Shown piece after piece: positions 3-15,143 of a DNA stretch of 21,371 bases. Below the pieces are notes generated by a model. That model searched no databases. It saw only the letters and a list, made by a program, of their open reading frames with translations, and was not told the origin of the DNA. Each line of letters starts with the position of its first letter. The first letter of the stretch is position 1. The DNA is from Pseudobdellovibrionaceae bacterium (GTDB taxonomy: Bacteria > Bdellovibrionota > Bdellovibrionia > Bdellovibrionales > Bdellovibrionaceae), in contig JBIKLL010000046.1 of the NCBI GenBank assembly GCA_044359815.1, positions 1 through 21,371 on the forward strand. The letters are read 5' to 3'. A program made the translations under genes and the position numbers.

Positions 3-920
3 CGACGGATTTCTGCGGTCCGACTAATCCAGCAGATTCCTGAGGTAAAAACCAAAATCCAAAATGGCAGCTTGAAATTGACAGTGGTTGCTCAGGCTCA
101 AAGCTTTTTCAAAAAAGAAGAAGCCGTAACCGGAAACAGATTAAAACCCGAGCAGAAAAAACAAATTCTGCGAAACCTTGAAAACAAGTCCTCACGCGAA
201 GCCGAGCTGGAACTGGTGAAATTGCGTCCAGAGTCTGTCAAACACTCAGAGAGCCTGCGGCCTTTGACCGAGGAATTTACAGAGATTAAATTTGTAATCA
301 CCTCAGACCTGAAAACTAAAATCACCGAGCTGCAAAATCTTTTGTCCCATCAATTACCCAATAAAAACATCAGCACCTTGATGCAGCTACTGGTCGAAAA
401 GCTTTACAACGATTTTAAGCAAAAAAGCAAAATTGCTGAGATCACTTCTGAAATCAAAAATAGTCCAACCTATTCTTGCGCCGAAGTGAAAAACTCCTCA
501 AAAATAGAGCAAGCTACGGTGAACAAAAAATCTGACAATAAAATTGATCAGATTGCATTCTTTGATCTGGTACCTCAAATCAAATATAAGCCCACTTACT
601 CCGGCGCCGGAGTAAATAAAAGTGTGCAGAATAAAGAATTAAATCACTCAAGCAACTCCAATACCAATTCCAATATAAACACAGAGAATGGTTTAAAACA
701 AAATCAATCACCCAGCAGATACATCGCGACCAAAGTGCGAAAATTTATCTGGAGTCGGGATCAGGGGCGCTGTCAGTACCAGAGCACCATAAGTGGTAAA
801 AAATGTGAATCAAGACACCAATTGCAGATCGATCACATTCATCGTTTTGCTGACGGAGGCGGCCATAAACCAGAAAACCTGCGACTGCTTTGCCGCGCAC
901 ACAACAACTGGCGCGGTTAA
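3..920 (+). CDS. HNH endonuclease domain protein (long helical N-terminus, low-complexity linker, C-terminal HNH); 5'-partial
   Basis: Frame is open from the window edge (RRISAVRLIQQIPEVKTKIQNGSLKL...), so the TTG at 72 is not the true start. C-terminus RDQGRCQY...KC...LQIDHIHRFADGG...NLRLLCRAHN is a typical Zn-binding HNH motif. Confidence 0.85.
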   Translation, partial: RRISAVRLIQQIPEVKTKIQNGSLKLTVVAQAQSFFKKEEAVTGNRLKPEQKKQILRNLENKSSREAELELVKLRPESVKHSESLRPLTEEFTEIKFVITSDLKTKITELQNLLSHQLPNKNISTLMQLLVEKLYNDFKQKSKIAEITSEIKNSPTYSCAEVKNSSKIEQATVNKKSDNKIDQIAFFDLVPQIKYKPTYSGAGVNKSVQNKELNHSSNSNTNSNINTENGLKQNQSPSRYIATKVRKFIWSRDQGRCQYQSTISGKKCESRHQLQIDHIHRFADGGGHKPENLRLLCRAHNNWRG

Positions 921-4951: not shown

Positions 4952-6169
4952 TTAGTAACTGGTAAACAAGACGATGCCAAAAATTTTGTATTGGGGATCG
5001 GTCAGTGATTTGTACTGACCGTTGATCCACAGCCCTGGGAAATAATTTGACCCATCGGTGAAATACCCAGTGACAATTGTTTTTCCATTAACCACAGAAA
5101 TTTTGCCAAGCTTTGCAGGTCTGATCCCATTAGCGTTAATTGTAAGTTCATTCCAGACTTGGTTTTTCCAAAATCCATAATGAGTTTTTAAATTGGTCGA
5201 AAACGTTCCCAAAACATAAATGTCTGATTTTAAAACCAACAAATCATTGTCATCGACATTCATTAACGTTTCACCAGTAGTCAGTACAGGTTTGAGCTCT
5301 GTCCAAACATTGTTGATCCAATAGCCAACACGGGTGCCGCCTGATCTGTGTATGCCCTTGCCAGTGACAATCATAGAATCGGTTGTAACTGCAGAATTTG
5401 CGGGATCAGTTTTCGTTGTGACGCTGATTTCTGATGGAACTGTGTCGGTTAAATCAGTGGGCTTTGTAAGGTTTTGAAAATCATTATTCACCCAAATCCC
5501 CGGATTGCAGTCACTGCTCAGGCCTGCAAAATAAACTCCGGTTTGATCGGCATCAATGGAGGTTAGAGTTGATATACGACTGGAGTCATCCAAGACATTC
5601 TGTGCATCCAGGTTTTGCCAGTAATTTCCTGAACGCCGGCACGCTGTGTTTTCAGTGGTTTCATAACTGGCACTATAAAAAATCTGACCGTTAAAATCTG
5701 CTAAGGCCCCATTTAAAAAACGGCTGATCTGCAAATCGGGGGTTTGCAGGTACTGCAGTTTGTGATTTTGCCAAGCTATAGGGCGATACTGGGAGCCCGA
5801 TTTATAATATCCCAATACACTATTAGAAAAGGCCATTTTTTTTGCCGCCAGCAGATAAACTATGGAGGATTCGGCAGGCATGGGTAAAACATGAAACACT
5901 CCGTTTTGCCAATACCCCGCACGGTAATCGTTCACCTCTGCAATAAATCGATATCCATAAAAATTCAGTCCCGGAAATTCTGGCTCATCTGTATTGTCCA
6001 AAAACTTTGAGGCTTCGGCAGTTTGCTCAGTCATTACGCCCACAGGTTGGGAAGAGTTGTTGCTCAAAGGCCTGTCGGATCGATCACAGTTTTGAAAAAA
6101 CAAAATTAAATTCAGAGTGACTAATAAAACCAACCAATAAATATTTTTAAGCCTTTTGGGTGATTTCAT
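4952..6169 (-). CDS. Predicted lipoprotein with seven W-x-N repeats (probable beta-propeller)
   Basis: Signal peptide ending LFFQNC; repeats GYWQNG, IAWQNH, NYWQNL, GIWVNN, GYWINN, GFWKNQ and GLWING. ATG 6169 preferred over TTG 6178. Confidence 0.7.
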   Translation of the reverse strand: MKSPKRLKNIYWLVLLVTLNLILFFQNCDRSDRPLSNNSSQPVGVMTEQTAEASKFLDNTDEPEFPGLNFYGYRFIAEVNDYRAGYWQNGVFHVLPMPAESSIVYLLAAKKMAFSNSVLGYYKSGSQYRPIAWQNHKLQYLQTPDLQISRFLNGALADFNGQIFYSASYETTENTACRRSGNYWQNLDAQNVLDDSSRISTLTSIDADQTGVYFAGLSSDCNPGIWVNNDFQNLTKPTDLTDTVPSEISVTTKTDPANSAVTTDSMIVTGKGIHRSGGTRVGYWINNVWTELKPVLTTGETLMNVDDNDLLVLKSDIYVLGTFSTNLKTHYGFWKNQVWNELTINANGIRPAKLGKISVVNGKTIVTGYFTDGSNYFPGLWINGQYKSLTDPQYKIFGIVLFTSY

Positions 6170-6234
6170 ATAATCCAATTGGTGATTTTTAACTGACTCA
6201 AACTGAGACTCATCTGGCCTTCCCGTCAGCTATC

Positions 6235-6262
6235 CTATCGGCCAGTCTGCGCCATTATTTTA
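6235..6262 (-). promoter_or_regulatory. Candidate sigma28 (FliA) promoter for the W-x-N repeat lipoprotein
   Basis: Minus strand reads TAAA-N16-GCCGATAG, close to the consensus TAAA-N15/16-GCCGATAA, about 65 nt upstream of the ATG. Confidence 0.55.
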
Positions 6263-6302
6263 GCCTTTTTTCAGCTGCAATCGATTGCACGATCCGGCTG
6301 CA

Positions 6303-6667
6303 AGTTGCTGAATGCAAATTTTAAAAATAATTCTGTGATTTTCCACTTTGTGAATACATTTGCGAGCGCGCATGGCATATCTGGTGTTGCGTAAATGTAA
6401 AGATAATTTTTTTCACTATTTTTAGACACTCGCTAACGGCCGCGGGCTCATCTCTCGTATTGAGTCATTTTATAAAAGCAATTTTTTTGCTTTTATAAAA
6501 TGACTCAACACCAGATATGCCCCGCACGCTCGCTGTATGTGTCTAAAAACAGTAAAAACAAATTATCTTTGCATTTACGCAATACGAGAGATGAGCTTGC
6601 GGCCGTTAGCAAGTATTCACAAAGTGGAAAATCACAGAATTATTTTTAAAATTTGCATTCAGCAACT
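6303..6667. repeat. Long composite palindromic element, copy 1 (REPIN/MITE-like)
   Basis: Perfect 55-bp inverted arms 6303-6357/6613-6667; central hairpin 6463-6481/6487-6505; three internal complementary segment pairs; extra 12-bp outer IR 6275-6286/6689-6700. Confidence 0.92.
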
Positions 6668-6701
6668 CGAGACTGAATTGCCCTGGGTAATCGATTGCAG
6701 T

Positions 6702-7415
6702 TTAATCGACGATCGCGATGGAGCCCCAGTCTTGGGTGGTTAGCAGGGGGATTGAGTGATTTTTGAGTCTGTTGATGATGATCTGGTGAGGGTGTCCGTA
6801 CTTCAATTTTCGGGCTGAAGCTATCGCCAGTTTCAGATGTCCCAGTTGAGTCAGCAGAAACTCAGATGACGAAGTTTTGCTGCCATGATGGCCCAGGATC
6901 AGAATCCTTGCATCCCAAATTTTTGAATAGTTCCAAAGCTTTTCTTGGGCGCTGGGGGCGTCCCCTGGAATCAGCATCTTAAAACGTTTGATCCAGGCAA
7001 CCTGACTGGTTTTATTTTTGATTTTAGTATTTATATTTTTACCCTGCGGAAACAGATTCTCATGATCTGGGGCCATGCAGACTTTTTTGGCTGTGAAAAA
7101 ACTCAGATTCATTTCATCAATAGGGCGCAGCTGATTGAGTCTGCAATCAAAAAGCGGACTGAATTTAGCAAATGAATAATGATCCCAGTCGGCATGACTT
7201 AAAAACAATTTGTTGGTTTTTCCCCGGCAAAATTTAAGCACCTTTGCAGTTTGATTGTATTCACCACCCATATCCATATGCAGGCATTCATCCGGTTTTA
7301 CCAAGGTTGCCCAAGAGCCTTGGCCCACATTCCAAATGATCAGGTATTGTTTGTAAATGCCTGAGGCCATGGGGGAGCCATAGCTAAAAATCAAAATCAG
7401 AATCCAAGCTCTCAT
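6702..7415 (-). CDS. ComEC C-terminal-type metallo-beta-lactamase-fold nuclease (stand-alone)
   Basis: NVGQGS, DMGG, LSHADWDH, LIPGDA, GHHGSKTSS, YGHPH and TQDWGSI are the motifs of the ComEC/Rec2 MBL domain. Confidence 0.85.
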   Translation of the reverse strand: MRAWILILIFSYGSPMASGIYKQYLIIWNVGQGSWATLVKPDECLHMDMGGEYNQTAKVLKFCRGKTNKLFLSHADWDHYSFAKFSPLFDCRLNQLRPIDEMNLSFFTAKKVCMAPDHENLFPQGKNINTKIKNKTSQVAWIKRFKMLIPGDAPSAQEKLWNYSKIWDARILILGHHGSKTSSSEFLLTQLGHLKLAIASARKLKYGHPHQIIINRLKNHSIPLLTTQDWGSIAIVD

Positions 7416-8319
7416 TTGAAAGCCACCTCTTTCGTTTTGTCAGTTCAAAGTATCGCAATGAGCTGAGTGCAAATATAAAGATCACCCATTGGGTAAAGCT
7501 TGGCCTGTTGATCACATAATCGGGTGCAATGGCATTGAGGCCCTCAAGATTTAGGATCAAACTTTTATAAAAAAATCCAAAGCAAGCATCAATCCACAGG
7601 CTCAGCAAACTAAAATAACTGAGGGGAATTAAAACAAATGAAATCACAGGGGCGTAAATCAGATTGGCAAAAACAGATTTTAAATTAAACTCAAAAAACA
7701 AAAGCGACAAAAACCATTGGATCAATAAAGCTTCCACTAAAAAGACCCATTTTTTGTTTTGATTCAAAATTAATTGGCAGACCACCAAAATTAATGAGCA
7801 CCAGCACGACAGATTAAAGGACCGAGAATTTACCCAGTCGGGGAACAGCATCAAAACCGAGCAAAATCCCCAGGCTGATAAAATCACCGGTGACCTGCGG
7901 TGCCAGCGGCCCGAAGCAATCAGCACCTGAGTGATAAAGGCTTTGGCAATGGGCGGGCAAAATCCCACCATTAGGGATAACAAAAACAACACCACTGAGC
8001 TCAAAATAAACTTTAGTCGGCTGAGTTTTGCTGGGATAAAATCAGTCAGAATCTTAATTAAACTGGACCAAAGCATAAGGTTGCCTGCTGATACAACAAG
8101 CACATGATATAAATTCAAGTTCATAAATAAATTAAAATGCGGTTCCATTACGAAACTGATTCCGCAAATCAGACTTTGCTTAATTTCTGAAAAACTATGT
8201 TGTGACAAAAATAACTCACATGATTTTTGGGCTTTGTAAGACAGATGTGCTGTTAATAAATGCATTTTCAAAAAATGCATCAAAGCAAACAATCCTGGTA
8301 TTAAGAAAAATAGAATCAT
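7384..8319 (-). CDS. comEC: ComEC/Rec2 competence membrane domain protein
   Basis: Highly hydrophobic 311 aa; LYHVLVVSAGNL (cf. HxxxxSGxH), GFCPPIAKA, SFNLS and ANL motifs; overlaps the MBL-domain gene by 32 nt. Confidence 0.75.
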   Translation of the reverse strand: MILFFLIPGLFALMHFLKMHLLTAHLSYKAQKSCELFLSQHSFSEIKQSLICGISFVMEPHFNLFMNLNLYHVLVVSAGNLMLWSSLIKILTDFIPAKLSRLKFILSSVVLFLLSLMVGFCPPIAKAFITQVLIASGRWHRRSPVILSAWGFCSVLMLFPDWVNSRSFNLSCWCSLILVVCQLILNQNKKWVFLVEALLIQWFLSLLFFEFNLKSVFANLIYAPVISFVLIPLSYFSLLSLWIDACFGFFYKSLILNLEGLNAIAPDYVINRPSFTQWVIFIFALSSLRYFELTKRKRWLSNESLDSDFDF

Positions 8320-14818: not shown

Positions 14819-15143
14819 ACCAATTAAAAACCAATGCCTGCAGTTAATTTGAATTTGAATTTTAAAAAATATTTCTATGCTTTTTTATCTTGTGAATACA
14901 TTTGCGAGCGCGACGTTTAATTTACCGCCGCATATCTGGTGTTGCGTATATATAATAACTCAACACCAGATATGCCCCGCACGCTCGCTGCATGTGTCTA
15001 AAAAAAGTAAAAACAAATTACCTTTGCATTTATGCAATACGAGAGATGAGCTTGCGGCCGTTAGCAAGTATTCACAAGGTATAAAAGCATAGAAATATTT
15101 TTTAAAATTCAAATTAACTGCAGGCATTAGGTTTTTAATTGGT
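14819..15143. repeat. Long composite palindromic element, copy 2
   Basis: Arms 14819-14899/15068-15143 differ by a 1-nt indel, a 6-nt duplication and 2 substitutions. 14958-15077 matches 6503-6622 at 116/120 nt. Confidence 0.92.

Follow-up and report, generated by a model that had tools for sequence, protein, structure and literature searches.

Locus and structure of the element

The window, by which we mean the whole stretch of 21,371 nt that was analysed, is contig C34 of a genome assembly of 2.95 Mb that comprises 125 contigs and is 91% complete. Two genes on the minus strand enclose the element studied here, which spans positions 6303-6667. Table 1 lists its parts and its neighbours, together with a second family member in the window and a family of transposase-like paralogues elsewhere in the genome. 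Upstream of the gene that precedes the element we observed a gene for a ComEC-like competence protein (7384-8319, minus strand; Pfam Competence, E = 6.7e-12).

Table 1. Features of the element at 6303-6667, of its surroundings and of the Y1-like gene family. Positions without a contig name refer to the window.
Feature	Position	Strand	Remarks
S, left arm of outer stem	6303..6357	+	inverted repeat with S', 55/55
ATTT linker between S and core	6358..6361	+	opposite AA at 6611-6612
A, A-strand of the outer unit's conserved core	6362..6389	+	variant 1, CATGG type
B, left arm of connector stem	6390..6429	+	37/41 with B'
Inner unit	6432..6533	-	core variant 2, CGGGG / CCCG type
D hairpin, hypervariable apex of inner unit	6463..6505	.	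19-bp stem, T5 loop
B', right arm of connector stem	6539..6579	+	pairs with B
C', C'-strand of the outer unit's conserved core	6580..6610	+	variant 1, CTTG type
S', right arm of outer stem	6613..6667	+	55/55 with S
Second family member in window	14819..15143	+	deletion derivative within its own S stem
Upstream neighbour gene	6702..7415	-	no Pfam match; stop 35 nt from S'
Downstream neighbour gene	4952..6178	-	no Pfam match; 125 nt from S
Y1-like paralogues	C23:201-821, C47:11964-12584, C48:48177-48797, C49:93331-93951		weak Y1/HUH
Y1-like paralogues (remaining)	C56:2969-3616, C100:633-1253, C125:2378-2998, C8:23373-24056		weak Y1/HUH

An earlier note, made from the letters of this stretch, had described the element as a permuted palindrome with the block order S-A-B-C-D-D'-A'-B'-C'-S', in which each primed block pairs with its unprimed namesake. 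We recovered all of these pairings: S:S' matches at 55/55 positions, A:A' at 25/28, D:D' at 19/19 around a loop of five Ts, and C:C' at 29/31, where both exceptions are G.T pairs. For B:B' the count of 37/41 corresponds to three substitutions and one indel. A and C are indeed diverged homologues, as A agrees with the reverse complement of C' at 21 of 31 positions and C with that of A' at 22 of 32. The segment 6303-6315 of S is private to the window copy and the portion conserved in the family begins at about 6316; other copies align to window positions 6316-6654.

The fold of the element as single-stranded DNA has an energy of -137.8 kcal/mol compared to -42.4 +/- 3.8 for 100 shuffled sequences (z = -25), and as RNA we obtained -208 kcal/mol (z = -22.6). 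The minimum-energy structure is one long rod with DNA as well as with RNA parameters.

A family of nested hairpin units

The element belongs to a large family. A blastn comparison with the genome gave 325 alignments, which merge into 114 places, and the C' block has 129 genomic matches with at most 5 mismatches. A 23-nt core pattern taken from C' matched 65 times in forward and 64 times in reverse orientation, compared to 0 matches for the reversed control pattern. In total 61 top-level elements could be delimited. They amount to 20.2 kb or 0.68% of the assembly, and at 32 of the 250 contig ends a core is found no more than 400 nt away.

The basic unit consists of a variable arm S, the conserved strand A, a variable hairpin D, the conserved strand C' and the arm S' (for example C106:330-580, C46 and C35), with A standing directly 5' of the hairpin and C' following it. 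The arms of the S stem are 55-100 bp long and specific to each copy. Simple units measure about 210-280 nt and composite ones about 365 nt. The 129 C' cores are made up of 65 simple units, 35 outer units of nests and 29 cores without an A partner within 600 nt, which lie at contig ends or are degenerate. In nests the order is A+ C'- A- C'+ or the mirror image of this. Among the genome's listed cores there is no nest of two units in the same orientation; C22 is a rearranged exception. In C6, C20, C38 and C95 the inner unit of the nest retains its full S stem.

The window copy is such a nest: an outer unit (S-A...C'-S') carries in its apex a second unit on the opposite strand, and the two are joined by B:B'. 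Read on the minus strand, the inner unit has the complement of 6506-6533 as its A-strand, 6463-6505 as its hairpin D and the complement of 6432-6462 as its C'-strand; it was scored as the simple unit C34:6432-6520(-). Because the inner unit sits on the opposite strand, A' and C are the complements of its A and C' strands, and for the same reason the right half of the element reads A'-B'-C'. Nesting two asymmetric units in opposite orientation is thus by itself enough to produce the permuted order. The first ~20 nt of B form the apical stem of the outer unit and the remainder is the basal stem of the inner one. B is almost invariant across the long-form copies, and the deletion derivatives C5 and C110 retain its first part alone.

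The order A-B-C-D-D'-A'-B'-C' recurs in all 28 aligned full-length copies, which excludes a one-off rearrangement as well as an assembly artefact at the window locus. Matches to the window copy on the same strand show 80-94% identity, always above the 68-78% found for matches on the opposite strand. The core variants are linked within units: an A-strand with GCGGG goes with a C'-strand with CC in 44/44 units, and GCATG in A goes with TT in C' in 29/30. Strand A occurs in 15 sequence variants in the 28 copies, 12 of which carry a 13-nt hairpin insert with no equivalent in A'; this optional insert is the only part of A shown to form a small local hairpin. In the second family member of the window (Table 1) an A that carries the hairpin insert is joined through a short AT loop to A'-B'-C', and this A forms a local hairpin with A'. 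We found no pair of near-identical elements in the genome, the closest pair being 96.5% identical over 318 nt.

Rod and strand-exchanged form

The earlier note had proposed two states for the single strand, namely a rod with imperfect A:C' and C:A' pairing and a strand-exchanged form in which the helices A, B and C join two four-way junctions. The rod is the predicted fold; the strand-exchanged form was supported neither by covariation nor by folding or the polymorphisms. We consider it extremely unlikely that the sequence was selected to switch between the two. The complementarity that suggested the idea is real. As isolated DNA duplexes A:A' and C:C' reach -30.3 and -39.3 kcal/mol, compared to -14.0 for A:C' and -11.3 for C:A', i.e. 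-69.6 kcal/mol for the summed crossed helices versus -25.3 for those of the rod (DNA parameters). The conserved order in 28/28 long-form copies speaks for the proposal as well, and C:C' is 99.2% paired across 23 copies. However, when we required A:A' or C:C' to be kept, the best nested folds reached only -110.7 and -121.5 kcal/mol, respectively, both worse than the rod at -137.3 kcal/mol.

We studied covariation in an alignment of 23 long-form copies, from which truncated and partial copies, the self-reverse match and four further full copies were left out. The RNAalifold consensus of these copies is again the rod; it comprises 154 pairs, and compensatory changes are seen in 56 of them. Compensatory pairs were frequent in S (41/55) and D (11/19) and rare in B:B' (2/40), and covariation was nil or nearly so for the pairings that define the crossed form, with 1/28 for A:A' and 0/31 for C:C'. 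Eight pairs of A:A' vary solely by breaking. The common polymorphisms of A, at window positions 6383 (G/C) and 6387 (T/A), break A:A' in 13/23 copies and are unpaired in the rod, and the 13-nt insert of A is unmatched in the 12/28 copies that carry it. The mismatches of A:A' and C:C' fall exactly on the core-variant sites that co-vary in the pairing of the rod, where the exchange of one core variant for the other in A:C' amounts to A-T to G-C plus G.T to G-C. At the boundary between S and core, TT/AA of the linker co-varies with CC/GG in 3/23 copies.

A further argument against a selected crossed state comes from the 65 un-nested units (S-A-D-C'-S'), in which the partner strands are missing and such a state is impossible. 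In addition, three helices of 28, 40 and 31 bp would all have to cross one another in the crossed form, from which we infer a severe kinetic and topological barrier. Our conclusion is that nesting produces the crossed form as a by-product and that this form is no selected state.

Upkeep of the stems and strand bias of mismatches

The two arms of a stem are kept complementary within each copy while their sequences differ between copies. For the inner 55 nt of S the complementarity was 0.906 within a copy versus 0.688 between copies, and in 39/45 elements the own arm was the best partner. Overall 3457 of 3662 S cells are Watson-Crick pairs. In their outer 20-30 nt the S arms group into a few subfamilies or are private to one copy, as in the window. 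The D hairpins are extremely diverse, with 47 distinct sequences among 52. The 65-nt D hairpin has a conserved apex that occurs in both orientations among copies (C93, C13 and C122 versus C49 and C92).

According to the earlier note the mismatches favour neither strand. Across the family this does not hold: on the sense strand of the unit G.T mismatches outnumber A.C mismatches by 35:9 in D and by 67:47 in S. Counted over distinct sequences the ratio in D is 31:9 (p = 0.0007, overstated as the copies are related) and drops to 22:9 without one recurrent site; for S we obtained p = 0.07, which is overstated for the same reason. The bias rests on related copies and arises in part from two recurrent positions. 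At position 24 of D the pairs T-A, T.G and C-G are all present. The G.T bias suggests that a single strand, be it DNA or RNA, is read in its folded state and in one orientation.

Persistence and changes of the interior

The population to which the genome belongs is present in lake-water metagenomes. In four independent runs the flanks of the window copy were covered at a depth of 4-10, compared to a summed depth of about 200-1450 for the interior, a ratio of about 100. One metagenome contig of 75 nt equals 6303-6377 without a difference. Among the metagenome contigs at the window locus none covers the whole element, and no joints were seen there.

Nine loci with the family were retrieved from one metagenome assembly. 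They are short contigs found by the core pattern itself, a selection that cannot show absence of the element, and 9/9 map to genome loci where an element or a contig end is present; the flanks are 84-98% identical. We compared five of them base by base. In each case the flanks and the S stem are retained and the interior differs. The interior is inverted in 2/5 loci (L041/C110 and L049/C49), the inner module is swapped at L047/C6 and at L046/C113 the D hairpin is exchanged for another paired variant. Deletions were found at C110 and in the second family member of the window, relative to the orthologous L042, which has the full long form. As the loci are shared with metagenome strains and no near-identical copies exist, the family looks old and vertically inherited, and its reshaping seems to owe more to recombination, both between arms and between copies, than to recent transposition. 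The protein of the downstream neighbour gene had no match in 25 relatives and thus this route gave no orthologous locus free of the element.

Position relative to genes

For the genomic setting we used a crude gene set, in which ORFs of at least 100 aa were picked greedily (2679 genes, 90% coding). No top-level element lies wholly inside an ORF (0/61), and six overlap an ORF by more than 15 nt. Where both neighbours were available, 32/49 elements lie between convergent genes, compared to 16.1% of the 2554 neighbouring gene pairs (p = 1.5e-14). Another 15/49 are in co-directional settings, close to the stop of the upstream gene, and 2/49 are in divergent ones. The orientation of the co-directional elements is unbiased (8 sense versus 7 antisense).

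This placement directly after stop codons and mostly between convergent genes would agree with a cis-acting or small structured RNA, i.e. a unit in 3' UTRs whose core is bound by an RNA-binding protein or an RNase. It might serve as a bidirectional terminator or 3'-end stabiliser, and the composite form would give a sense core to both convergent transcripts. REP elements act as 3'-end stabilisers. The enrichment of G.U-compatible mismatches on the sense strand (35:9 in D), the three kinds of pair at position 24 of D and the stable RNA fold all suit this reading. So does the hairpin insert of the A-strand, which varies in length in the manner of peripheral RNA helices. We nevertheless regard an RNA role as rather unlikely. 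Between strains the interior changes its orientation with respect to the flanking genes and shows no trace of constraint, the co-directional copies show no preferred orientation, and a folded DNA strand would give the same G.T bias. Perfect duplexes of 55-100 bp are moreover unusual for bacterial RNAs. A search of the whole window against Rfam gave 0 matches at the gathering score; at E <= 10 the matches of the region 6200-6780 were confined to generic hairpin models of microRNA precursors, all far short of their cut-offs, the best with 56.8 bits versus a cut-off of 245.

Distribution and comparison with known repeats

The earlier note did not recognise the layout from REP, BIME, ERIC or attC elements, and in Rfam the element likewise has no described family. 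By blastn the element was not found in 40 relatives, where one 40-nt match in relative G017 (E = 2.8e-4) was taken as chance. The core pattern had 0 exact matches in the species collection and one match with 2 mismatches in 400 other genomes of the phylum, among which the element was not found. A literature search on intergenic palindromic repeats of Bdellovibrio brought up nothing relevant.

REP units are about 20-60 bp long, each with an imperfect palindrome of its own at the core. Strands A (28 nt) and C' (31 nt) fall within this size; a small local hairpin is formed only by the optional insert of A. According to Bertels & Rainey (2011; PMC3116915), REPINs are extragenic inverted REP doublets for which hairpins in ssDNA or mRNA are predicted, and compensatory changes are common in them. 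The family studied here resembles them in several respects: it is extragenic and high-copy (129 cores), two diverged and inverted conserved blocks (A versus the reverse complement of C', 21/31) enclose a less conserved spacer so as to form a single-strand hairpin, the stems show compensatory changes (11/19 pairs in D), and elements persist at the same loci in related strains. It differs from REPINs in the size of its units (about 210-280 nt for simple and about 365 nt for composite ones versus roughly 100 nt), in that A and C' are only about 68% alike, and in its copy-specific stems of 55-100 bp and its nesting in opposite orientation. REP palindromes are tagged with GTAG or CGTC at one end according to PMC3733652, whereas both motifs and their complements are absent from 6303-6667; CGTC occurs inside the optional hairpin insert of other copies. 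The relation to transposase genes differs as well, since the RAYT-like gene of this genome is flanked by an unrelated repeat and the Y1-like paralogues have no adjoining units.

In the BIMEs of enterobacteria, which bind IHF and gyrase, REP/PU variants alternate in orientation and are combined with extra motifs into mosaics. Our family is likewise a mosaic of a few conserved modules at gene 3' ends in which two unit variants alternate in orientation. There is no sequence relation, and one unit is nested inside the apex of the other here whereas BIMEs are tandem. On this likeness one could take the element for a double-stranded site of a host chromosome protein, comparable to BIMEs for IHF and gyrase, with the palindromic stems as a by-product of the repeat's origin. 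The almost invariant and asymmetric core, the BIME-like mosaic of modules in alternating orientation and the copies at gene ends over many contigs are compatible with such a site. It would leave unexplained why the pairing of S and D has survived many compensatory changes, and the strand bias of the mismatches would be unexplained too, and we judge it improbable.

Bacterial MITEs such as Correia, ERIC and RUP elements are non-coding multi-copy sequences with inverted-repeat ends that can form hairpins, and the present family shares these properties. It differs from them in lacking fixed termini and a consistent target duplication, and we could find no autonomous partner.

Candidate mobilising enzymes

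We compared all ORFs of at least 100 aa against each other. The Y1-like family in Table 1 was the only repeated transposase-like gene. A three-copy HNH protein was found besides, and no multi-copy DDE transposase was detected in this comparison of an assembly that is 91% complete. That the elements are ordinary cut-and-paste MITEs of a DDE transposon, with S as the terminal inverted repeats, therefore appears very unlikely to us, even though the long terminal inverted repeats, the high copy number, the missing coding capacity and the breaks in the assembly at copies all fit a MITE. Besides the missing enzyme, the outer 20-30 nt of S vary between copies and yet pair, so there is no fixed terminus. 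We observed no consistent target-site duplication at the inspected element ends either; there is one possible 10-bp repeat at C48.

The eight Y1-like paralogues are 86-92% identical, about 206 aa long and have a visible HUH motif, with a weak match to Y1_Tnp (24 bits versus a cut-off of 23). As mobiliser of the family they are a candidate only: no units lie alongside them, and homologues are present in 24/40 relatives, none of which has the element. These Y1/HUH paralogues are expanded across this order, with up to 17 homologues per relative genome. Each of the eight genes is preceded by a conserved leader of ~70 nt and most of them by copy-specific, microsatellite-like tandem arrays whose unit sequences differ.

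The genome also has one canonical RAYT-like gene in single copy (C8:9768-10106), which lies between the arms of a perfect 25-nt inverted repeat (C8:9475-10290). This repeat has 37 exact copies in the genome, often as inverted pairs 100-350 bp apart, and together with the gene it is a separate REP/REPIN-like system.

Interpretation

The elements form a lineage-restricted, high-copy family of extragenic hairpins with about 129 core units at no fewer than 60 loci, the window copy is an opposite-strand nest of two units, and its fold is a single rod. Of this we are all but certain. The sequence family is new and its kind is familiar, namely that of a REP/BIME-like bacterial hairpin repeat and no purpose-built double Holliday junction. 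The whole explanation, which adds to the nested-unit family a way of working and spreading like that of REP, BIME and REPIN elements, has in our estimate a probability of about 0.55.

On this explanation the family would work like REP/BIME/REPIN elements: a putative factor would read the conserved, mismatch-bearing core on one strand of the folded single strand, which may be ssDNA or possibly RNA. The units would have spread by being copied into the apices of hairpins and into the short gaps that follow stop codons, and their present persistence would be mostly due to vertical descent. The complementarity of the arms is presumably upheld by selection on the folded strand, by conversion from arm to arm, or by both. 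Recombination between the S arms would invert the interior and exchange between copies would reshuffle the modules. The near-invariance of the core could alternatively come from gene conversion between copies, with no recognition by a factor. Several observations count against the explanation. No mobilising enzyme could be tied to the family, as neither the RAYT-like gene nor the Y1-like paralogues have adjoining units, and the near-identical copies that would mark recent transposition are missing (closest pair 96.5%). Likewise, we recovered no empty site and saw no consistent target-site duplication.

A more specific version is conceivable but doubtful. The A/C' core would be the recognition module of a system specific for single strands, perhaps a multi-copy Y1/HUH paralogue, the composite form would be favoured because at the ends of convergent genes either strand would then carry a core that can be read, and the extreme diversity of S and D, which stay paired throughout, would be actively maintained, for example to limit recombination between copies, rather than a product of drift.

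More generally, whenever asymmetric hairpin repeats are nested in opposing directions the result can look like a permuted palindrome, and an exotic reading in terms of junctions is replaced here by a simpler, testable one. The family is also a natural data set: about 129 copies combine an invariant asymmetric core with co-varying stems, strand-biased mismatches and interiors that become inverted or swapped from strain to strain under an outer stem that remains. It could be used to study what reads such hairpins, how palindromes of ~365 bp survive and how REP-like repeats persist with no obvious transposase.

Nuclease genes

With regard to long palindromes we searched for SbcD (TIGR00619). It was not found in the genome, and we rejected its loss as a cause specific to this genome: the relatives show the same near-absence, with 1/40 above the cut-off compared to 13 positives among 14 control genomes. 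A clade-wide SbcD background of this kind may tolerate long palindromes, a link that we draw by inference.

An HNH protein is encoded in the window (72-920, plus strand), and also at C107:10375-11331; the genome has at least three related copies. It has a C-terminal HNH nuclease domain (Pfam HNH, 28 bits) and resembles the HNH region of IscB weakly, with 30.5 bits versus a cut-off of 175.
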